The notes under the pieces: generated by a model | The model's input: only the letters and a program-made list of their open reading frames with translations | Told to the model about the DNA's origin: nothing | Database searches by the model: none | Shown here: positions 1 through 45,085 of the stretch, one piece after another | How the letters are laid out: each line of letters starts with the position of its first letter | Numbering within the stretch: position 1 is the stretch's first letter | From: an uncultured Candidatus Saccharibacteria bacterium | Lineage (GTDB): Bacteria; Patescibacteriota; Doudnabacteria; UBA920 | Length of the DNA: 64,000 bases | Assembly (NCBI GenBank): GCA_964416765.1 | Contig: CAYQEU010000001.1 | Location: forward strand, 276,480-340,479 | Direction: 5' to 3' | Program-made: the position numbers and the translations under genes

Positions 1-525
1 AGTTTCGAAACTATCGATTATTTCTCCTAGTAGCCACAAAACATCCTCATCACTAATTCTCCGCTTTAAAACATCTTTAAGAACAGCATGATCAATATTT
101 GCAAAAAACTTTCTAATATCTCCTTTCAAGACCCAAACTGTACGGGTATTATTGCGCGAAACCCGGCGAGCATAGCTTCTAAAACGATCAATGCCGCGCT
201 GCACACCTTTATCGTAACGGCAAGAGAAAGAATCGAAGATAAATTTTGTATCGTAGAGCGGATACAAAATACGGTAAATCGCATGATGAACCAGCCGGTC
301 AGCAACGGTAGCCTTATGAATATCGCGCGGCTTAGGGTCGTTGATTTTGAAGGCAAAGTACGAACCATGCTTATACGTTTTGTCTCGTAACTGATAATGC
401 AGCGAAATGATATTATCCGTTAAATTTACCGAAAACTTAATAACATCTTTGCGCTTCCGCTTGCCTCGCAAGAATTCCCGCCACGCTATTAGCAAATTAT
501 CAATAGAAATAATATTACTATGCAT
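1..525 (-). CDS. DGR-type reverse transcriptase, N-terminal 175 aa only (gene runs off the window start). Start ATG at 525..523.
   Basis: Manual minus-strand translation gives MHSNIISIDNLLIAWREFLRGKRKRKDVIKF...PKPRDIHKATVADRLVHHAIYRILYPLY...FSCRYDKGVQRGIDR...VLKGDIRKFFANIDHAVL. This lines up with the Bordetella phage bRT N-terminus (NLWDAYRK..GKRRTW, EPKPR..KDRLVQHAL, YACRPDKG, SDFSKFFPSIDRA). It is not in the ORF track because it is partial at the edge. Confidence 0.8.
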   Translation of the reverse strand, partial: MHSNIISIDNLLIAWREFLRGKRKRKDVIKFSVNLTDNIISLHYQLRDKTYKHGSYFAFKINDPKPRDIHKATVADRLVHHAIYRILYPLYDTKFIFDSFSCRYDKGVQRGIDRFRSYARRVSRNNTRTVWVLKGDIRKFFANIDHAVLKDVLKRRISDEDVLWLLGEIIDSFET

Positions 526-921
526 ATGACCAAACTGGCTATTTCGTTTGATATTGCGGGAAAGGCTTCGATTCTTAGCAGAGTCAAAGAGGGATATCTG
601 ATTTGGATGAATTTTGTACCGCATATTCCTAAAGGCGCACGTTATACTATTGGCTCAAGAATTGAAAATAAGTTTCTTGATTTGCTTGAATTATCCTATA
701 TTGCTTATTTTAGCGAAAAAGCTGCCAAAACAGAAAAAATATCCGAGTGTATTCTTACACTTGATACCTTAAAGTTTCTTATTGCCACTGCTTGGGAGGG
801 AAAATTAATTTCTAATAAGCAGTTTGAGGACATAGCCCTCAAGCTAGATGAAGTCGGCAAGATGCTCGGCGGCTGGAAGAAGAATCTCGATAATCCGGAA
901 AAGAAAAACCACAGCCTGTAA
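520..921 (+). CDS. avd: Avd-like accessory variability determinant (four-helix bundle; 23S rRNA intervening-sequence protein family).
   Basis: 133-aa ORF. The C-terminal ISNKQFEDIALKLDEVGKMLGGWKKNL resembles the Avd motif AEVGRILGSWI and the IVS-protein consensus. ARYTIGSRIENKFLDLLELSYIA matches the YGLTSQLRRAA-SI helix. It sits between the RT and the TR. Confidence 0.7.
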   Translation: MHMTKLAISFDIAGKASILSRVKEGYLIWMNFVPHIPKGARYTIGSRIENKFLDLLELSYIAYFSEKAAKTEKISECILTLDTLKFLIATAWEGKLISNKQFEDIALKLDEVGKMLGGWKKNLDNPEKKNHSL

Positions 922-932
922 TAAGGCTGTGG
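909..932. terminator. Hairpin ccacagcc-tgtaataa-ggctgtgg spanning the avd stop codon.
   Basis: 8-bp perfect stem. It lies between avd and the TR. Confidence 0.35.
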
Positions 933-942
933 AAAGAAAAGA

Positions 943-1073
943 CTTTCGAAAACGGAACGCGAACTTGTTGTCGAGATTCCACTTGTTGTCCGGGTTCGCC
1001 CATTTATCGTTGAGCCACAGATCGTCTTCGTTGCGTTCCAGGTTGAAGACGTTCGGGTTGCCGTCGGAATCTG
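943..1073 (-). repeat. DGR template repeat (TR). The sense strand is the minus strand.
   Basis: About 131 bp near-identical to 1396..1526. All ~20 mismatches fall at T on the + strand of this copy, which is A on the target-sense strand. The 3' (minus-sense) 18 nt, cgaaaacggaacgcgaac, is A-free and invariant, as expected for an IMH-like end. Confidence 0.8.
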
Positions 1074-1289
1074 TTTATCGTATAGTGCGCCGTCAATGCC
1101 ACTGCCCGCCTAAAGCTGAGGCTGGGCTGTATTTTATTCGTGATCGCAAATCACCCAGCGACCTACACCAAGTATTTTCTTTTTTGATGACTACAAGCAG
1201 ATCCTCCGCAAGAAGCCTTGGCCGCCTGCGCTCTCAACCTGAATGAGCCTAATGGGTTTTGAAAAGCCGTAGCCGTTCAATGCTACCAA

Positions 1290-1302
1290 TCTAACCTAAT
1301 TA
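1290..1302 (-). promoter_or_regulatory. Putative extended -10 promoter (TGgTATAAT, minus strand) oriented toward the TR and RT.
   Basis: The minus-sense sequence reads aaatttggtataatta, between the target-gene hairpin and the TR. No good -35 is present. Confidence 0.3.
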
Positions 1303-1323
1303 TACCAAATTTTTTTCGAGCGA

Positions 1324-1336
1324 CCCCCTTCGGGGG
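1324..1336. terminator. GC hairpin (cccccttcggggg) just downstream of the target gene stop and the VR.
   Basis: 5-bp G/C stem with a 3-nt loop flanked by A/T runs. It could terminate the target gene and/or act as the VR-flanking DNA hairpin known from other DGRs. Confidence 0.4.
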
Positions 1337-1366
1337 AAAATTCAAAGGATCAAAGAGTCAAACGTT

Positions 1367-3496
1367 CTAACAAGGGACTAAGTTTTTGAGTTTTTCTTGC
1401 GAAAACGGAACGCGAACTCGTAGTCGAGATTCCACTGGTAGCCCGGGCGCGCCCATACACCCGTCGAGCCACAGATCGTCTCCGCGGCGCCCCAGGTCGA
1501 AGACGTCCGGGTCGCCGTCGGAATCTGCGATTTGTTTCATTCCTGTGTAAAACCAGTCGCCTTCCGGCTGATCGAGATTCTGTAAACGATAATTTGGTCC
1601 GAATTCTGCTGGTAGTAATTCCAAACCAAGTTCTTCAGCCCGGGCATATAATTGATCAGTCGTTGGGTAGCTGGTAAAACCAAGATCGGCAACTGTAAGC
1701 CGTACATAGTCTAGTTTTTCTTTGTTTTGTGCGGTTACAAAATCTTTACTATGCAGCATGTCCTTAGCATAGGTACTGATTTGTACGCCAGCTGCCTCCA
1801 TTTCTTTTTCAAGCTGATCTCTTGTTTTTCCGCCGATTTCAACCTGGCCCCGACGAATTTCACGCTCAGGGAATGAAACATAGATATGCTCAATATCCGA
1901 TTGCAGCATATCAATACTAAACTCGCCGATATAAACCTTGGTTGATTCAGTAATCTCACTTTTGCCAAGCGCGATTTCTTGTGGTTCGCACTTAATACCG
2001 GCAACGATTCTGATAATTTTTGCGGCATCTGTTTTAGGCATTTCGGGAGTCAATTCCATATCGCCTAGCTTCAAGTAAAAATCACTCTCTTCGGGATTAA
2101 AATCACGGAAATGAACTTCTCCACGTTCTGTAAGCACATGGTAATCCTTAACTTTGATATTACTCAGTTCGCTCTCGGAAATCTTTCTAAAGTCACGAAG
2201 CTGGCCAGTATCAGTTTGCGTGGTACGAAGCTTTTTAAGTGCGTCGATAACGTCGTCATAATAAGGATCATTAGGTTGGAGGTATTCATCATCCTGCTTT
2301 TTCATCTGTTCAATCACTTTGGTTTTGAGGTTATACTCCATAGTAATTACTGGTGTATCACCTTCAAGCCTCCCCGCGCGATTATTGAATTTTGGAGCGG
2401 TGCGAAATGACAAGATTTCGATTTCTCCACGCTTCATTTGGTTAATGTAAGAATCGCTCGTACCGACGCAGTGGCGCATATATTCCGATTCTTCCTCAAG
2501 GTGCGGCATATTAAGCAAGCGAGCGACGTAGTACTTGCCAGAATCAGTCTGTATGAGGTTTTCCCAAGGATTAGACGCTTCGCTATCTCCCATTTCAGCA
2601 CGCGCTTTGCGTATCTCTGCAATTTTTTGCAAGGTCTTTTCTTGGTGCACTTCAAGCAAACGATGGAGGCTTCCTTTATCTGTATTTATAAACTTGGGGG
2701 ACTCGACAATAGCATCAAACAAATCACTTAAGTCGATCGTTTCATTAGAAATAAGATGTCTTGCAAGTTTGAGTTTCAGTATGATTTGCTGGCGCTCGCC
2801 AAATTCAAAGTCTTGCACGCCAGCCAGACGGCCGCTTAAAGTCTGGTAGGCACTATTGATAGCCTGCTCTTTTTGTGGGCGGTTTTCTTTTGAAAATGAA
2901 TTTAGCGTCTGCGAGTATCTCTGATTAAGCTCGCTAATATACTTATCTTCAAATGCTTTTCTGCGCTCTGCTTCTACCTGCTCGACTGACTTTTCTTCAG
3001 TTAGAGCTTTCTCATAAAAATCAACTGAGTACCCTGCCATGTTGTCCGTGCGAAGCCGTTCAAAGCCATACCGCTCCAGCACATGGTTTAATCGGTCATT
3101 CCAGCCGTGAAAATTCAGGCGGAGGTAGCCTTGTTCTCGAGCGTACTCAATAAAACGAGGAATCTCCCGCATGGCATTGCGGCCCGTATTACGCGTAGTG
3201 CCGAAGTACTTAATATACGCTTCGCGAGGAATAAAATCTTCACATGCAATGTAGCCAATGATTTCATCTTGACTACCACTTATGAGTTTGTTGAGCGGAT
3301 GGCCGTTTTCTAAAGTATGAATAACATCCTCTACGGCCATAGTGCGTATGGCCTCATCGACCTCAGTGATGCCGAGTGTGATTGCACGGATAGCATCTTT
3401 TTGTTCTTCAGTAAGTTGGAGGCCGCGCTTTTGTTCGACCTGTTCTTGTTCCTCGGTATACAAGGGAGCGGGAACTTCTCGATTTCTAGGGTTCAT
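1367..3496 (-). CDS. DGR target protein (709 aa). The N-terminal ~650 aa have no recognised domain. The C-terminus is a CLec/FGE-like variable ligand-binding module holding the VR.
   Basis: Long ORF whose C-terminal codons are the VR. The TR-encoded equivalent ADSDGNPNVFNLERNEDDLWLNDKWANPDNKWNLDNKFAFRF has the AAC-codon-rich signature typical of DGR variable regions. The N-terminus has no signal peptide. Confidence 0.75.
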   Translation of the reverse strand: MNPRNREVPAPLYTEEQEQVEQKRGLQLTEEQKDAIRAITLGITEVDEAIRTMAVEDVIHTLENGHPLNKLISGSQDEIIGYIACEDFIPREAYIKYFGTTRNTGRNAMREIPRFIEYAREQGYLRLNFHGWNDRLNHVLERYGFERLRTDNMAGYSVDFYEKALTEEKSVEQVEAERRKAFEDKYISELNQRYSQTLNSFSKENRPQKEQAINSAYQTLSGRLAGVQDFEFGERQQIILKLKLARHLISNETIDLSDLFDAIVESPKFINTDKGSLHRLLEVHQEKTLQKIAEIRKARAEMGDSEASNPWENLIQTDSGKYYVARLLNMPHLEEESEYMRHCVGTSDSYINQMKRGEIEILSFRTAPKFNNRAGRLEGDTPVITMEYNLKTKVIEQMKKQDDEYLQPNDPYYDDVIDALKKLRTTQTDTGQLRDFRKISESELSNIKVKDYHVLTERGEVHFRDFNPEESDFYLKLGDMELTPEMPKTDAAKIIRIVAGIKCEPQEIALGKSEITESTKVYIGEFSIDMLQSDIEHIYVSFPEREIRRGQVEIGGKTRDQLEKEMEAAGVQISTYAKDMLHSKDFVTAQNKEKLDYVRLTVADLGFTSYPTTDQLYARAEELGLELLPAEFGPNYRLQNLDQPEGDWFYTGMKQIADSDGDPDVFDLGRRGDDLWLDGCMGAPGLPVESRLRVRVPFSQEKLKNLVPC
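1396..1526 (-). repeat. DGR variable repeat (VR), at the 3' end of the target gene.
   Basis: The counterpart of the TR with N at the TR adenine positions. It lies inside the last ~45 codons of the 709-aa ORF and is 1 nt longer than the TR between anchors. Confidence 0.8.
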
Positions 3497-3539
3497 ATGC
3501 TTTTAGATAAAACGTCATGACTTAATGCTAAAATCCAAT

Positions 3540-4514
3540 TTATAAAAACTTAGGAAAAACGGCTTGGAATTTTTCGGCTGTAGTAATCATCCAATCAAAA
3601 TACTTATCCCATTCTAATTCATTTTCAAAATTGCCAGGTATAGATACCTTGATCCTGCTAGCTTTCTTTTCCGGCAATTCCATCCACTCCAACTTTTGGC
3701 CAAGTTCCGCTTCGATCTGATCTTTGCTTGCAAATAATTTATGATATAACTCTTTGTTATCTGATATATAAATTTCACAGGCAAATAGATTTTCTCTGGA
3801 GTTTATAGTCAGTGCAATATGGCATTCGCTACTGCCAATGCTGATATTAGTCCAGTGCTGAGGATAGCTTTTTTGAAAACGAAGTCTTGAGTTATTTTTC
3901 TTCCCATAGCTTTTCAAATCATTCCAAAACTGTAATTGCTTGATCTTGGTATCGGTGAGTTCGGCGCTCTCAGCCGAGCTTTTTACCGCTTTAGCCCAGT
4001 CATTCGGTTTAGAGATCACTTCAAACTTAGGAGCAAATGGCGAATCGGCAATTTGCCATAATTCAATCTTCAGTAGATAAAATCCGATTTCTTCATTAGT
4101 GTTCTCGTTTAGCCAGTCGATAGCTTGGCGGTGTTCTTCCCTGACATCTTTTACTACCCAAATAACGATACGAGCATCATAGCCGGAAGCATAGGTAATA
4201 ATTTTACCTAAGTGATCGTGATTGGTAATTTCCAGTTGGTTTTCAATAATTATTTTATTACCAGTATTTTCTTCTTCAGCTAATATATCGACATTAAAAC
4301 TACCGACTTTAGCTTCGGTTTGTATCAGCTTGATATCAAAACCAATTTCATCACTAAGCAGACGAAGGTTTTCTTCTAAAGCCAACCATTGAGTGAAATC
4401 AATTGCTTCATGTTTCCAACCTTCACGCAATTCAATTTTCTTAAGTTTTCCTAATTGATTCATTGGCTCAATTATAGCAAAAAATCGCCTTCTCGGCGAT
4501 TTTTTGTGGGTCAA
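3540..4514 (-). CDS. Restriction-endonuclease-like (PD-(D/E)XK / NucS-like) N-terminal domain fused to a DUF4268-like C-terminal domain.
   Basis: 324-aa ORF in a markedly AT-rich stretch. The N-terminal GWKHEAIDFTQWLA...VDILAEEE...IIIENQ pattern is nuclease-like. Confidence 0.45.
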   Translation of the reverse strand: MTHKKSPRRRFFAIIEPMNQLGKLKKIELREGWKHEAIDFTQWLALEENLRLLSDEIGFDIKLIQTEAKVGSFNVDILAEEENTGNKIIIENQLEITNHDHLGKIITYASGYDARIVIWVVKDVREEHRQAIDWLNENTNEEIGFYLLKIELWQIADSPFAPKFEVISKPNDWAKAVKSSAESAELTDTKIKQLQFWNDLKSYGKKNNSRLRFQKSYPQHWTNISIGSSECHIALTINSRENLFACEIYISDNKELYHKLFASKDQIEAELGQKLEWMELPEKKASRIKVSIPGNFENELEWDKYFDWMITTAEKFQAVFPKFL

Positions 4515-4563
4515 TATAATCAGGTACGAAATGACCCTTCTCGTACTCCGAACCTATCTCAAG

Positions 4564-4638
4564 GTGGCTGGGGTAGTAGGATTCGAACCTACGAATGACG
4601 GGACCAAAACCCGCTGCCTTACCACTTGGCTATACCCC
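4564..4638 (-). tRNA. tRNA-Gln (anticodon UUG).
   Basis: Minus-sense sequence TGGGGTATAGCCAAGTGGTAAGGCAGCGGGTTTTGGTCCCGTCATTCGTAGGTTCGAATCCTACTACCCCAGCCA. It folds as a cloverleaf with anticodon loop TTTTGGT, CCA encoded, and is similar to E. coli tRNA-Gln. Confidence 0.85.
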
Positions 4639-4784
4639 AATATATCAATTTCGTAACCCAAATTTTACCATATTTTAGGCCATTAGTAAAGGGTTTGAGG
4701 CGTGACAAACTGCTAAGTATGTGGTATAGTCTCTTGAATACCCAAGGGGTATTCTATTTCTAGCAGGGGGACCTAAATCTATTT

Positions 4785-5438
4785 ATGAGTAGTGAAAGTA
4801 TACTGACCGGGACGTCCGGTCAGGCAACGGCGAAAGCCACGTTCAAAAACGTAACGGAAATTTCGGACAACCGCTACGTTCAGCCAATCTTGGAACGGAT
4901 GTATAATCCGGCGACCGAGGGGTCCGAATTCGCTTGTCTCGCGGCAAACATGGGCGAAGAGCTGGGTAGACATGCCTGGCACAACGTCCTTCGGGCAGGG
5001 GAAAAGGTCGCTCTTGTTCCCATTCTCAACTCCGGTATGTTTATCTGGAAAGGCGTTCACAGTAAGGTGAAGCCCGTCCAGGTCTGCCCCATAGATATGG
5101 AGCGGAAATACAACGACGACCGGAGCATCAGAGTTGAGGTTTACAAGAGCCGTCTTCGCGGGGCGCCAGCCGACCACGCGTTGATACTCGAACCGATGAT
5201 TGCGACGGGAGCTAGCGCCCTCGACGCACTTAAGCTCGTTTCGGAATGGAGACCAAAACGCATCAGCATCCTCAGCGTGCTGTGCGCTCCTCAAGGTCTT
5301 GCCGCCATCGAGCAGGCGTATCCGAACGTAAAAATCGTGACCGGCAAAATCGCCGGCGGTCTCGATGAGAACAGTTACATAATTAACCCTGGAATCGGGG
5401 ATTTCGGCGACCGGTGCTGCGGCGTGCCGTCGCACTAA
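4785..5438 (+). CDS. upp: Uracil phosphoribosyltransferase.
   Basis: PRPP-binding motif ILEPMIATGASALDAL and the C-terminal YIINPGIGDFGDRCCG signature. Confidence 0.85.
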   Translation: MSSESILTGTSGQATAKATFKNVTEISDNRYVQPILERMYNPATEGSEFACLAANMGEELGRHAWHNVLRAGEKVALVPILNSGMFIWKGVHSKVKPVQVCPIDMERKYNDDRSIRVEVYKSRLRGAPADHALILEPMIATGASALDALKLVSEWRPKRISILSVLCAPQGLAAIEQAYPNVKIVTGKIAGGLDENSYIINPGIGDFGDRCCGVPSH

Positions 5439-38502: not shown

Positions 38503-41331
38503 GTGAAATCATTTGTTTTAATTAAGCGTTATATTCATATAATTAAACCCATAGTTTCTATGTCACACATAATGAAATTGAAGTCTATTGCGGGTTCCAG
38601 CTTTGGTTTGGCTACCGGAGCCATTTTGTTTGCCGCTTTGGCAACCATCATGGTTTTGGTGCCTCGCATTAACAGCGTATCCAAAGCCGAATCCTGCCCG
38701 AACCCTCCGGACCACGCAGTCTTGAACTACTGGCCAGTGAGTTTTGAACCTAGCCAGACCGGTTGTACCGATTTTACTACCGTAGACGGTCACCTGGTTT
38801 CCGGGGGTTCCTATTCTACCAGCCAGGCCGATTATGATAACGGCTTGCAGATGGCAGATGGCGACGAAGCCTACATCCGCACCTACGTCCACAACGGCGC
38901 TGCCCAGAATGGCGACCCTAACCAGACTACCGCCCAGAACGTCCAGTTGGACGTAAGCATCGCCAACACTGCTTCGGCAGACCACGGCGTCACTGCTTCC
39001 TGGCACGGCAGCAACACCAACACCGCTAGCGGTACTTTCGTGTTGCATACCCCAGCTAACCGCACCGTTGAAATTGTCCCAAACAGTGGGGAATTGTTCG
39101 ACGCGTTCGGCAACCGTTTGGCCGCTAACATTGATTTGTCTTCCGGCCACTACACCTTGGGCAACCAGCAGGCTTGTTTCGAATTCGCCCGCTTCTTGCG
39201 CTTTAAGGTTCGCATGGTAAACGCTGGTGCTCCTACCCTATCCATTACCAAACAGGTGCGCAACGTAACCCGTGGTGAAAGCAACTTCTCTTCTTCGACT
39301 AACGCTACCACCGGTGATACCGTCCAGTACCAGATCCGCGTAAGCAACACCGGTTCCGCGATCGCCAACAACACTACTGTTACCGATACCGGTACCAACG
39401 GCACCACTTTTGTGGCGGGCTCATTGCAGACCACCATGGGTACCGGCAGTACTATCCCTGGCACTATCAACATCGGCAACCTGCCGAATGGCCAGTCTGC
39501 CACTATCACTTATAACTCTACCGTAACTGGCGGCGCCGGTTCCTACGTTAACACCGCTACCGCTCAGGCAACTGGGATCTCCCCTGTTACCGCCACCGCA
39601 ACCGTTAACGTAAGCGTGGTTAACAATACAAATAACGCTGAATGTGTGGGCGTTACTTTGAGCCCAGCCAGTCCTTTTAGCCCGAACCAGGCCTTTACCG
39701 GCACTATTACCGTACGCAACAACGGCAGCACTACTTGGGTTCCGGCCAACGGTTACGCTTTGGGTTCCCAAAACCCGCAGGACAACACTACCTGGGGTTC
39801 CAACCGCATTAACTTAGGCACTCCAGTGGCTCCTGGCCAGCAGGCTATCCTGAACATCAGCACCCACGCCCCTGCTACTGCCGGCACTTACAACTTTGCC
39901 TGGCAGATGGTCCAGAACGGCCAATTCTTCGGCGCGATTTGTCAGACCCCGGTTGTGGTTAACCCGGTTCAACCCCAGAACACCACCCTGGCTTTGACCA
40001 AGAATGTCCGCAATGTTACTCAGGGCACTGGCTACCAGAAAACCGTTAGCGCCAACACTGGCGACACCGTACAGTACGAAGTCCGCATCCGCAACACTGG
40101 CTCCGTTACCGCCCGCACCGTCACTTTGACTGATAACGGCACTTCCGGCACCCAGTTCATCAGCGGTTCCATTGATGTAACACCAGCCCCGGTAAACACC
40201 AGTTTGGCTTTGGGTACCATCCCTGGCACCCTGAACCTCGGTGATTTGACCGCTGGACAGGAAATGGTTGTTCACTACAGCATGCGCGTTACCGGCGGCC
40301 CGGGAACTTACCCGAACACCGCTACCGCCCAGGCCAGCAACACCAATTCTGCCTCTGATACCGCCCAGGTTATTGTTAACCCGACCTGTACCAACAATTG
40401 TGGCGGTACTTACTCCATCGCGGTTGATAAGCAGGTTCGCAATTTGACCAACAACGGCTCTTACTCTAACTCTGCTTCAGCCGTTAACGGCGACCGCGTG
40501 CAGTTCCAAATTGTGGTTACCAACACTGGTACCCTGCAGTTGAGCAATGTCCGCTTGTCTGACGTATTGCCTTCCGGCCTGAACCTGGATAACTCCAGCC
40601 TGGCTATCGACGGCACGTTGATCTCTTCTTCTGACATCAACAACGTTGTAATCGGCACCTTGGCTCCCGGCGCGCGTAAGACCTTTACTTTCGTGTCCAC
40701 TGTCAGCCGCAACGTTACCCCTTGTACTTCCACCTCTCTCCAGAACATTGCCCGCGCTTCCGCTGACAGCGTAGGTACTGTCCAGGACGATGCCTTCGTA
40801 ACCGTTGGCTGTGTCCAAGGCTCCAATATCAACCTGGTCTTCTCCAAGAAGGCTTGGAACGATACCAAGAACGTCGATGCTACATCTACCAACGCTGCTC
40901 GTGAAGACTTCATCACTTACACCCTGACCGTTACCAACACTGGTAACTCTGATGCCAACAACTTCGTCATCACCGATGACCTGTCTGGAGTCCTGCCTTA
41001 CGCCGACTTTGTCGACAACGGCCAGGGCGGCACCTTGAGCGGTAACGTGATTACCTTCCCGGCTGTAACCGTACCGGCTGGCGGAACCGTCACCAAGACC
41101 TTCCGCGTCCGCGTTAAGTACAGCTTGAGCAATTCCCTGACTTACCAGCTGCGCAACACTTACGGTAACACCGTGTTGATCAACGTTGGGTCTGTCTTGG
41201 GTGCTTCCACCTTCGTAGCCCCGGTTACCGGCGCTACCGGCCAGGCCGCCGTCTCTTTTGCCGGTCTCTTGGTCGCAGGCTTCGTGGCCTACAAGAAGCG
41301 CTCCTTCCTGAAGAAGCTCATCTTGGCCTAA
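38503..41331 (+). CDS. Large cell-surface protein with DUF11-type repeats and a C-terminal sortase-like sorting signal.
   Basis: N-terminal signal/TM. Repeated Thr/Asn-rich ~100-aa modules (…TKQVRNVTRGE…GDTVQYQIRVSNTGS…). The C-terminus is APVTGATGQAAVSFAGLLVAGFVAYKKRS. Confidence 0.65.
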   Translation: MKSFVLIKRYIHIIKPIVSMSHIMKLKSIAGSSFGLATGAILFAALATIMVLVPRINSVSKAESCPNPPDHAVLNYWPVSFEPSQTGCTDFTTVDGHLVSGGSYSTSQADYDNGLQMADGDEAYIRTYVHNGAAQNGDPNQTTAQNVQLDVSIANTASADHGVTASWHGSNTNTASGTFVLHTPANRTVEIVPNSGELFDAFGNRLAANIDLSSGHYTLGNQQACFEFARFLRFKVRMVNAGAPTLSITKQVRNVTRGESNFSSSTNATTGDTVQYQIRVSNTGSAIANNTTVTDTGTNGTTFVAGSLQTTMGTGSTIPGTINIGNLPNGQSATITYNSTVTGGAGSYVNTATAQATGISPVTATATVNVSVVNNTNNAECVGVTLSPASPFSPNQAFTGTITVRNNGSTTWVPANGYALGSQNPQDNTTWGSNRINLGTPVAPGQQAILNISTHAPATAGTYNFAWQMVQNGQFFGAICQTPVVVNPVQPQNTTLALTKNVRNVTQGTGYQKTVSANTGDTVQYEVRIRNTGSVTARTVTLTDNGTSGTQFISGSIDVTPAPVNTSLALGTIPGTLNLGDLTAGQEMVVHYSMRVTGGPGTYPNTATAQASNTNSASDTAQVIVNPTCTNNCGGTYSIAVDKQVRNLTNNGSYSNSASAVNGDRVQFQIVVTNTGTLQLSNVRLSDVLPSGLNLDNSSLAIDGTLISSSDINNVVIGTLAPGARKTFTFVSTVSRNVTPCTSTSLQNIARASADSVGTVQDDAFVTVGCVQGSNINLVFSKKAWNDTKNVDATSTNAAREDFITYTLTVTNTGNSDANNFVITDDLSGVLPYADFVDNGQGGTLSGNVITFPAVTVPAGGTVTKTFRVRVKYSLSNSLTYQLRNTYGNTVLINVGSVLGASTFVAPVTGATGQAAVSFAGLLVAGFVAYKKRSFLKKLILA

Positions 41332-43792: not shown

Positions 43793-43977
43793 CACTCGCA
43801 ACTTCCATAACTTCAACCATTGAGCCCGGATCGACCTTTAAAGTCTTTCCGGGTTCTTTGTTTTATCGGGCGCAATTTGGTGTGGACATAAAGCCGACGC
43901 CTATAAGAATAAGCAGGCCAGTAAAATAAGAAGTTTTTGCGCTGCCTGTCGTTTTATGCTATAATTTATGCACAATT

Positions 43978-44131
43978 TAATATTATCCAGAGTGGCGGCG
44001 AGGGAACTGACCCCGCGACCCGCCCGGCAACCTCTGTTTGTGCCCTTGGCATAAGCAAGCTGGTGCCTCATTCAGCCCGCAAGGGAAAGATAATTGGAAT
44101 ATCTACTTCGGGCGTTTGTAGCCCGTTTTTT
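43978..44131 (+). ncRNA. SAM-I (S-box) riboswitch with an intrinsic terminator, upstream of metK.
   Basis: uuauccagagUGGCGGCGAGGGAacuGaCCC..GacCCgCCCGGCAACC...GGUGCcucAuuCagcccGCAagggAAAGAUAA matches the SAM-I consensus (UUAUCAAGAG, GGxGGAGGGA, CCCGGCAACC, GGUGC..AA.UCC.GCA, AAAGAU). Terminator hairpin cgggcg-tttgta-gcccg plus UUUUUU at 44109..44131. Confidence 0.8.
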
Positions 44132-44149
44132 ATTTGTAATTTTCTAAAG

Positions 44150-45085
44150 ATGTTAAAGACTGCTGAGTTTATTACCCCCAGGCACCCTGACAAAATTTGC
44201 GACCTCATCGCGGATACTATTTTAGACGCGTACTTAGCTGGCGACCCGGCCAGCCGGGTGGCAGTGGAAGTTTTGGGGGGTCATGGCAAAATTATGATCA
44301 CCGGGGAAGTTACTTCCCATACCCATCCCGAAGTGGAAAGCCTGGTCAAACAGATTGAACCAAACTGTGAAGTGGAGGTGCGCCTGGTTAAACAGAGCCC
44401 CGAAATTGCCCGTGGCGTGGATATTGGCGGCGCCGGGGACCAGGGGATTATGGTTGGGTACGCCTGCCGTGACACCGAAAATCTGATGCCCTTGGAATAT
44501 GAGCTGGCGCGCAAGCTATGCCAAGAGCTATACGAAATTTACCCTTTTGACGGCAAAGTCCAGGTGACGATTGAGGGCACCAAGGTGCAGACCGTGGTCG
44601 CCAGCTTCCAGAACGCGCCAACAGGAGATTTGTTAAAACATGTTCAAGCGTTTTTGCCGGCCGAGCAGTATTTGATAAACCCGGCGGGGGACTGGACCCA
44701 GGGCGGCTTTGACGCGGACTCGGGGTTGTCCGGCCGCAAGCTCGTGGCGGACAGTTACGGGCCGCAGGTCGCCATCGGCGGCGGGTCATTTTCGGGAAAG
44801 GATTATACCAAAGTTGACCGCAGCGGGGCGTATATGGCCCGCCGTGTCGCGGTCGATTTTTTAAAAAAATACAATTGTCAAAGTGTAACAATACGGCTTG
44901 CCTATGCGATAGGTAGGGTGAATCCGGTAATGGCAGTGGGTTTGTTGGATGATAACCGTTTTATACCGGTAAACGGTTACGACTTAAGCCCAACAGGCAT
45001 CAAGAATGCACTTCGTCTCGAGCAAGTTGCATACGCCACCACTGCGAACTGGGGACACTTCGGTCGCGGTTTCAACTGGGACTGA
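44150..45085 (+). CDS. metK: S-adenosylmethionine synthetase (short form, 311 aa).
   Basis: HPDKICD, GAGDQG and GGGSFSGKD motifs. Start at the Met after the riboswitch. Confidence 0.8.
   Translation: MLKTAEFITPRHPDKICDLIADTILDAYLAGDPASRVAVEVLGGHGKIMITGEVTSHTHPEVESLVKQIEPNCEVEVRLVKQSPEIARGVDIGGAGDQGIMVGYACRDTENLMPLEYELARKLCQELYEIYPFDGKVQVTIEGTKVQTVVASFQNAPTGDLLKHVQAFLPAEQYLINPAGDWTQGGFDADSGLSGRKLVADSYGPQVAIGGGSFSGKDYTKVDRSGAYMARRVAVDFLKKYNCQSVTIRLAYAIGRVNPVMAVGLLDDNRFIPVNGYDLSPTGIKNALRLEQVAYATTANWGHFGRGFNWD

Follow-up and report, generated by a model that had tools for sequence, protein, structure and literature searches.

A probable diversity-generating retroelement of the candidate-phyla-radiation type, with a PcfJ-like target gene and a covarying RNA upstream of its template repeat

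What kind of element occupies positions 1..3496 of the 64,000-nt stretch of contig CAYQEU010000001.1 (the window, in whose coordinates all positions are given), and is its target gene, which appears frameshifted in the assembly, still open to diversification? We assign this region with high confidence to the diversity-generating retroelements (DGRs) typical of bacteria of the candidate phyla radiation (CPR, Patescibacteria). The sense strand of the reverse transcriptase (RT), the template repeat (TR), the variable repeat (VR) and the target gene is the minus strand, along which the order is target gene with a 3' VR, promoter and leader of the DGR RNA, TR, inverted avd, and RT. This is architecture B3 as defined by Wu et al. 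2018, namely a TR-(avd)-RT order with avd on the opposite strand. The parts of the element, an adenine-specific pattern of differences between the repeats, the modelled fold of the target C-terminus, covariation in the RNA upstream of the TR and a boundary motif shared across the clade are directly observed. An earlier reading of the same DNA, made from the sequence alone, had proposed a complete DGR with an RT, Avd, a TR/VR pair and a target of the C-type lectin (CLec) type. That composition is borne out by the RT match to the Bordetella phage enzyme bRT, the Pfam bAvd match and the adenine-only substitutions; the completeness is not, given that the RT in the window is a 175-aa N-terminal fragment cut by the window edge.

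The decisive evidence comes from the repeats. The TR (943..1073, minus strand, 131 nt) contains 40 adenines, 8 AAC codons and 21 variable codons, and the VR (1396..1527, minus strand, 132 nt) differs from it by one inserted G near 1462 and, in a gapped alignment of the sense strands, by 20 substitutions, each of which affects a TR adenine (13 A>G, 4 A>C and 3 A>T; 20 of the 40 adenines altered). With adenine accounting for 40 of the 131 TR positions, the chance of all 20 falling on adenines is 5e-11. Because the mismatches fall solely at adenines of one copy, the pattern is that of DGR adenine mutagenesis. An 18-nt adenine-free stretch, GTTCGCGTTCCGTTTTCG, is invariant between the two copies. 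The VR covers the last ~44 codons of the ORF 1367..3496, the TR translates as ...DSDGNPNVFNLERNEDDLWLNDKWANPDNKWNLDNKFAFRFRK, and its 21 recodable codons correspond to about 10^19.7 protein variants. The sequence-only reading had correctly recognized the repeat pair, the TR limits, the roles of the two copies, the restriction of mismatches to adenines of the 943..1073 copy, the invariant 18-nt stretch at the 3' end and the AAC-rich TR; the equal lengths that it gave to the copies, with a VR of 1396..1526, did not stand, and an ungapped comparison accordingly yields a start-to-start offset on the plus strand of 453 nt in the 5' half and 454 nt in the 3' half. Additional VRs of this TR were detected neither in the window nor in the 10 kb upstream of it. 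The upstream sequence is available from a 93-kb Logan contig, SRR11845619_14970 (L001), which was recovered through an exact-protein look-up of the Avd ORF and shows 0 mismatches to window positions 1..4591.

The 3'-most of the 20 differences, A946 in the TR against C1399 in the VR, changes CGAAAG (948..943) to CGCAAG (1401..1396) and has a different character. In 77 non-redundant related loci, the VR ends in CGCAAGT almost without exception, and the TR carries CGCAACT (24 loci), CGAAAGT (at least 9), CGCAAAT (8), CGAAACT (4) or other forms, such that the TR form is altered relative to the VR in 73 of the 77 loci and no more than 3 or 4 have the same form in donor and recipient. Since a fixed VR/TR difference recurs across the DGR clade, this mismatch is probably not a random product of mutagenesis but the conserved distinction between the initiation of mutagenic homing site (IMH) at the VR 3' end and its non-identical counterpart IMH* in the TR. 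Of the differences in the window, 19 are thus probably products of mutagenesis, one is diagnostic of the boundary and one is an insertion, and the initial interpretation of all mismatches as a mutagenic-homing signature would apply to the 19 only. The CGCAAGT motif with its disabled TR versions provides a simple criterion by which donor and recipient can be distinguished and remote targets located.

The minus strand of 1..525 encodes, without stops, the N-terminal 175 codons of the RT (MHSNIISIDNLL...GKRKRK...PKPRDIHKATVADRLVHHAIY...FSCRYDKG...GDIRKFFANIDH). Taken alone, this fragment is ambiguous: its top NCBIfam model is group II intron RT (62.6 bits, cut-off 300) and Pfam RVT_1 matches weakly. 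The complete RT on L001 (8966..10000 of that contig) is a protein of 344 aa for which the best PDB match is bRT (8ub7_A, E 1e-43), followed by group II intron RTs at ~1e-22. The alignment spans bRT residues 12-304 and retains PKPRD (the bRT R74 region), LKGDIRKFF with the catalytic Asp, and YADD, and LPLGNLTSQ aligns with bRT I181/G182/Q187, that is, with the DGR signature [I/L/V]GxxxSQ. With the portion beyond 175 aa taken from the identical contig L001, the enzyme belongs to the DGR clade of RTs; the bRT motifs previously read by hand from the N-terminal part were right, and their proof required sequence outside the window.

The adjacent ORF on the plus strand (526..921, 131 aa), opposite to the RT, TR, VR and target, is avd. 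It matches Pfam bAvd with 58.7 bits (cut-off 40), which confirms the Avd-like ORF previously marked at 520..921, and NCBIfam DivGenRetAVD with 65 bits, under that model's cut-off of 80; a comparison with PDB sequences gives no meaningful match. An alternative ATG at 520 would extend the product to 133 aa; an exact look-up of this longer form finds no record, and the form starting at 526 is on record, called on the Logan contig. The start codons of RT and avd abut or overlap back to back in the palindrome ATGCAT (520..526). As this arrangement leaves no intergenic space for a promoter, each promoter would lie inside the other gene, or the RT would be made by read-through from the DGR RNA.

Between VR and TR there are 322 nt, and all of the sequence from a -10-like box to the TR can be aligned across 12 loci. 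The box, TGGTATAAT (1299..1307, minus strand), resembles an extended -10 promoter element and presumably marks the start region of the DGR RNA; judged by sequence conservation only, each of the 12 aligned loci has a TGnTAyAmT box (TAGTATACT in L025) at a distance of 219-265 nt upstream of its TR. It is followed by a 225-nt structured non-coding leader (1074..1298, minus strand), delineated with RNAalifold and a covariance model. The 5' domain of the leader (1298..1187) forms two hairpins with similar 11-nt loops, CGGYNANGGCU; its 3' domain (1186..1079) consists of a 13-bp long-range helix that encloses two hairpins and ends at the 5' edge of the TR. RNAalifold predicts 49 pairs over the 12 loci, 35 of them with compensatory changes. 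In the model-fitted alignment, 90.7% of cells are paired, compared to 32-48% in slid controls, and the covariation score is 0.487 against 0.07-0.14 in these controls, a value reached by 0 of 500 shuffles.

The covariance model R1, built from the 12 loci including the window and limited to the leader 3' domain, detects untrained copies in L014, L016 and L017. A 20-base pattern derived from the model is found in at least 120 metagenome contigs, and R1 run on the first 100 of these pattern-selected contigs gives 98 matches at E <= 0.001, with scores of 47-113 bits. RT and avd accompany the leader in 77 of the 120 contigs, most of the others being short. About one fifth of the 120 contigs carry the domain that precedes the lectin domain of the target, and none matched the GNAT or PcfJ part of the target described below; given that so few carry target-family domains, the leader RNA goes with the DGR clade and not with the target. 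A search of Rfam 15, which holds the RT-1..19 motifs of Weinberg et al. 2017 with RT-10 representing the spacer (Sp) of phage BPP-1, finds no family at the gathering threshold in the leader/TR region and none at E <= 10 in 850..1450 save a chance 12-bit match to P26. As far as our survey of the literature reached, there is no mention of this leader motif.

Directly 3' of the TR lies a U-rich tract, TCTTTTCTTTC (932..942, minus strand), complementary to an A-rich block in the leader (1186..1172), its proposed partner. Placement of the partner of the A-block with RNAduplex was ambiguous, with two U-rich tracts competing, and was resolved with a test in a fixed register: in one register only, pairing amounts to 81.7% in cognate loci, compared to 73.7 +/- 0.9% in 300 shuffles (maximum 75.9%). 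Compensatory changes are apparent, e.g., in L100 (AACACTA/TAGTGTT), in L152 (AAACAAAAA/TTTTTGTTT) and in loci with GAAGC/GCTTC, and further ones in L084, L087 and L122. We therefore propose, from these sequence comparisons, that a long-range duplex may close off the TR. The U-tract is followed by a stem-loop found with a terminator scan (897..932, minus strand), CCACAGCC-TTATTACA-GGCTGTGG (932..909) and then TTTTTCTTTTCC (908..897), which overlaps the avd stop codon on the other strand. By eye, a hairpin in the same place with differing stems (CCGCG/CGCGG, CTCTCC/GGAGAG, CCCCGC/GCGGGG and others) and a U-run are seen in most related loci. In DGRs of other phyla, Handa et al. (bioRxiv 10.1101/2023.10.23.563531) describe Avd-binding stem-loops of ~9 bp just 3' of the TR, along with a duplex that joins the upstream and downstream flanks of the TR, with 40 nt upstream analysed. 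By analogy, the terminator-like stem-loop at 897..932 may be the counterpart of the stem-loop bound by Avd in BPP-1 DGR RNA.

The region between the VR and the promoter-like box contains two further features. A GC hairpin, CCCCC-GAA-GGGGG (1324..1336, minus strand), is located ~60 nt 3' of the VR and recurs in 5 of the 12 loci as CCSCC-GRA-GGSGG. It is preceded at ~1340..1365 (minus strand) by CTTTG(A) repeats with a period of ~8-10 nt, which are also present in L005, L008, L012 and others. These features could represent the terminator of the target gene, a cruciform similar to that of BPP-1 (a GC-rich inverted repeat after the IMH) or a binding site for a regulator.

Taken together, these features suggest that the TR is apparently embedded in a self-contained RNA of ~400 nt composed of the -10 box, leader, TR, duplex, and stem-loop with U-tract. 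A more general possibility, only slightly less likely than not, is that CPR-type DGRs use a template RNA organized unlike that of Bordetella, with its own promoter, a structured domain upstream of the TR, and a duplex and short stem-loop in place of the 140-nt Sp. By sequence, the CPR arrangement appears to implement the logic of other phyla in another way, the structured RNA lying mostly upstream. If so, RNA recognition by RT and Avd, priming and the stop of cDNA synthesis would follow a different design in a lineage that is perhaps the richest in DGRs among bacteria; the covarying leader and duplex make template recognition and priming by RT-Avd amenable to testing in a second DGR lineage of a very different kind.

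The target gene (1367..3496, minus strand) encodes 709 aa as it stands and 705 aa in the canonical frame. The earlier statement that its N-terminal portion contains no recognizable domain turned out to be wrong. Residues 278-399 match Pfam PcfJ (PF14284) with 31.8 bits against a gathering cut-off of 25. In an AlphaFold2 model based on an alignment of 85 sequences (mean pLDDT 87), the protein consists of a GNAT-like domain (~30-165), long helices, the PcfJ-like domain, further alpha/beta domains and a lectin-like domain with the VR (~590-705). A Foldseek search of the PDB with the N-terminal ~150 residues returns GNAT acetyltransferases only (E ~1e-5, probability 1.0, TM (target) 0.5-0.7). Pfam Acetyltransf does not match the target and the Q/RxxGxG/A motif is not evident; since no Pfam GNAT model matches, the modelled N-terminal domain is best described as GNAT-like in fold only. 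The C-terminal 120 residues, modelled alone, give a pLDDT of 91 and a pTM of 0.82 with the topology beta-alpha-alpha-beta-beta-beta-beta. Thus, as anticipated from the sequence, the model identifies the VR-bearing domain as a minimal C-type-lectin-like domain. At the level of the fold, this supports the assignment of the "unknown VR" class on PcfJ-like CPR targets to the same kind of domain. No Pfam family matches the frame-corrected C-terminal 53 or 127 aa, a search of PDB sequences with the target-family profile yields no match, and a literature search on PcfJ returned only the C. elegans pCFJ plasmids.

Conservation among homologues agrees in outline with the division of the domain into scaffold and variable sites: over 85 aligned sequences, column entropy exceeds 3 bits at most TR AAC/AAN codons and stays below ~1.3 bits at most positions of the scaffold, such as G, P, F and the Leu conserved in LWL. 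A homology search that scored the best 8,000 candidates by shared words identifies 227 proteins at E <= 0.001, the top matches being ~700 aa long. The named homologues come from CPR bacteria (Berkelbacteria, Uhrbacteria, Shapirobacteria, Falkowbacteria, Nomurabacteria and Woesebacteria), and some are named "PcfJ domain-containing protein" at NCBI. In many related DGRs (L047, L054, L057, L077 and others), only residues ~487-585 and the lectin domain are conserved and the N-terminal parts differ. By sequence comparison, the "pre-lectin domain + CLec" unit thus appears to be a shuffled cassette.

From these parts we infer the limits of transcription, the priming, the current activity and the existence of a ligand, along the following lines. 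By homology with the BPP-1 system, an RNA of ~400 nt would start from the promoter-like box and fold into the structured leader, the long-range duplex bracketing the TR, and the 3' stem-loop with U-tract. The RT and Avd would bind this RNA and copy the TR into cDNA with misincorporation opposite adenines, and the cDNA would replace the VR, which would be recognized via its 3' boundary, i.e., the A-free stretch and CGCAAG, the TR carrying the disabled boundary form CGAAAG. The outcome would be the recoding of 21 codons in the C-terminal part of a multidomain protein, namely in a small, C-type-lectin-like domain that would bind a ligand.

The target allele in the assembly complicates this scheme. 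The extra G in the VR near 1462, adjoining a TR codon AAC, causes a +1 shift, so that the reading of the 709-aa ORF departs from the canonical frame once past ...LWLDG and terminates with CMGAPGLPVESRLRVRVPFSQEKLKNLVPC and a stop, with the last ~30 codons affected. The frame that matches the TR and the homologues reads ...LWLDGVWARPGYQWNLDYEFAFRFRKKNSKT up to its stop; with the base removed, the protein has 705 aa and ends ...GVWARPGYQWNLDYEFAFRFRKKNSKT (FAFRFRK) at the stop TAG 1380..1378, an ending shared by nearly all homologues. The sequence-only reading described a 709-aa minus-strand target gene; the ORF 1367..3496 does exist but is out of frame at its end, the one-base VR insertion having been missed.

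Wu et al. 2018 report that TR and VR lengths differ in 7% of DGRs, that 11 of 372 cases break the frame, mostly adjoining AAC, and ascribe such frame-breaking length differences to RT slippage. Internal TR/VR indels are present in 8 of the 77 loci and break the frame in 4, namely the window (+1), L012 (-5), L052 (-1) and L146 (+2); 1-nt TR/VR gaps in L007, L008 and L011 were dropped as alignment-edge artefacts. L012 (5954..6084), the protein P0039 and one further homologue break frame where the window does, directly after the conserved LWL. The recurrence of frame breaks at one AAC-rich spot suggests, at the level of sequence, a slippage hot spot that produces null alleles. Most simply, the inserted base in the window would be a real slippage by-product of mutagenic retrohoming that inactivates the lectin-like domain until it is overwritten. 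Given that the VR boundary and the upstream homology are intact, later retrohoming could repair the frame. The recurrent frameshifts therefore suggest that DGR slippage regularly yields reversible null alleles.

It is rather unlikely, but has to be weighed, that the extra base is an assembly or consensus artefact arising from mixed VR haplotypes, with most cells carrying in-frame alleles. Nowhere is a population genome more heterogeneous than in its VRs, and the window and the Logan contig, identical over 4591 nt, may share reads and hence are not independent records. Nevertheless, the same 709-aa product is encoded on both contigs (one NCBI record and one Logan assembly), de Bruijn chimeras of equal-length haplotypes seldom give single-base indels, and the similar frame-breaking indels of L012 and P0039 occur at the same position in unrelated assemblies.

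An alternative that we consider improbable is that the VR was diversified in the past and the target is now a fixed pseudogene for which retrohoming has ended. Such a relic would account for the disruption of the last ~30 codons and for the lack of VR variants on record, and many family members elsewhere have A-poor tails yet no nearby RT, avd or TR. Decay, however, is not apparent in the rest of the element: the RT is full length on L001 with every catalytic and DGR motif, avd is intact, the TR is intact with its 40 adenines, the leader scores 101.9 bits with R1, in the range of other loci (the window being one of the 12 model-building sequences), the intact boundary motif and upstream homology leave the frame repairable, and the remainder of the 2.1-kb ORF is free of stops. 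Finally, a group II intron, retron or defence RT beside an ordinary diverged duplication, which only the NCBIfam score of the 175-aa fragment favours, can be dismissed, considering that the full RT matches bRT 20 orders of magnitude better than it matches group II enzymes and contains LGNLTSQ, that it has no maturase or endonuclease domain and Rfam detects no intron RNA domains, and that Avd is adjacent and the mismatches lie exclusively at adenines of one copy.

Several points weigh against an intact, working DGR with the RNA outlined above. In its assembled, frameshifted form, the target is unable to complete the lectin fold, whose last strands are lost; the protein cluster at 90% identity is a single sequence, so that recorded variants of the VR are lacking. 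Promoter and terminator are recognized only by their match to a consensus, and the abutting starts of RT and avd leave no evident start for the RT mRNA if the DGR RNA ends at the U-tract. A DGR whose current target allele carries a slippage insertion, as opposed to an artefact or a relic, remains the reading that we prefer.

The element is part of a region that differs from the rest of the window. GC content is 0.40-0.47 in window positions 1..5000 and 0.37-0.46 in the 10 kb upstream on L001, versus ~0.50 in most of the remaining window; the low-GC block comprises window 1..4639 and L001 1..9475 and ends at a tRNA-Gln(ttg) gene (4565..4639), inside which the Logan contig ends. An att-type direct repeat of the 3' part of this tRNA gene is absent from the 10 kb upstream on L001 and from the remaining window. 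The low-GC block is probably an acquired, integrated island beside the tRNA gene, its boundary being drawn from GC content and the contig break only, with no att repeat. Genes upstream of the DGR encode a large serine recombinase, a ParB-N6/N4 methyltransferase, a DEAD/GpA-type ATPase and a 1539-aa AAA_11/AAA_12 helicase. Directly upstream of the target, the gene 3540..4514 (minus strand) encodes a DUF4268 protein that matches the PADLOC candidate anti-phage defence family PDC-S11 (E 3e-124).

By inspection, the N-terminus of the target is hydrophilic and has no obvious signal peptide or membrane segment; hence the protein is probably cytoplasmic, judging from its sequence. In view of the combination of GNAT-like, PcfJ-like and hypervariable lectin domains with no signal peptide, the PDC-S11 neighbour and the low-GC island, the target may serve inside the cell as a diversified sensor or effector in a conflict system and not as an adhesin at the surface, although this is the weaker reading.

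The remaining window is ordinary chromosome with genes for UPRTase, H+-PPase, P-type ATPase, AspRS and DnaB. The AspRS is 72-73% identical to Ca. Doudnabacteria proteins and, being closest to these, places the host in Patescibacteria; in sister strains the enzyme shows 95-96% identity. A SAM (S-box) riboswitch is detected at 43980..44096 (plus strand; 47.0 bits versus the Rfam gathering threshold of 44.4), upstream of the ORF 43937..45085, and 38503..41331 (plus strand) encodes a protein of 942 aa that contains repeated DUF11/DUF7507 and Ig-like domains and is probably located at the surface.

Among 41 genome loci of the family, RT and avd are located beside the target in 13, of which 11 are ordered target-TR-(avd)-RT and one, L016, carries the complete module in inverted orientation; ten of the loci with that order or its inversion have a confirmed TR/VR pair. 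Most metagenome loci with RT and avd also show the TR-(avd)-RT order. The closest relative, from a Ca. Doudnabacteria metagenome-assembled genome (67% identity), has the same layout and a TR/VR pair. L006, L009, L010, L015, L021, L022 and L024 contain full-length members of the target family with no RT, avd, TR or strong leader match within 4 kb. In such RT-less members, the C-terminal ~130 nt are adenine-poor (0.13-0.16), and L010 has a weak leader-like match (21 bits), which suggests, on sequence grounds, that they may be former targets or targets in trans.

As a system, the element is not novel but adds to an already catalogued kind of DGR, given that the target-TR-(avd)-RT layout and PcfJ-like targets have been described for CPR DGRs by Wu et al. 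2018, who found architecture B3 in 90% of CPR DGRs and list "PcfJ-like protein" as category g among the few recognizable CPR target motifs. Roux et al. 2021 place Patescibacteria DGRs in an RT clade of their own (DGR clade 2). The DGR itself is one more among thousands catalogued, many of them from CPR, and implies no conceptual change. It shares with the CPR DGRs of Wu et al. 2018 the inverted-avd order, the CPR host, the PcfJ-like motif upstream of the VR, the adenine-specific TR/VR differences and the occasional frame-breaking indels adjoining AAC. The closest known systems further include the DGR variable proteins with the C-type lectin fold, namely Mtd (1yu0), TvpA (2y3c) and the archaeal AvpA. 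Compared to the PcfJ family (PF14284), the target described here is extended by an N-terminal fold of the GNAT-like type and by a C-terminus that is lectin-like and hypervariable.

The comparison with BPP-1 (mtd-avd-TR-brt) shows both common logic and distinct construction. The two systems have in common an RT homologous over 300 residues with the key residues, an Avd partner, an A-mutagenized TR/VR pair, the IMH versus IMH* distinction, a stem-loop that closely follows the TR and a duplex of TR-flanking sequences. In contrast to BPP-1, avd is inverted between TR and RT, such that there is no 140-nt non-coding Sp region, and RT-10 has no match here; a 225-nt structured RNA lies upstream of the TR and only ~45 nt separate the TR from the U-tract of the stem-loop. 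Unlike the phage tail fibre diversified in BPP-1, the target here is a chromosomal, probably cytoplasmic, multidomain protein.

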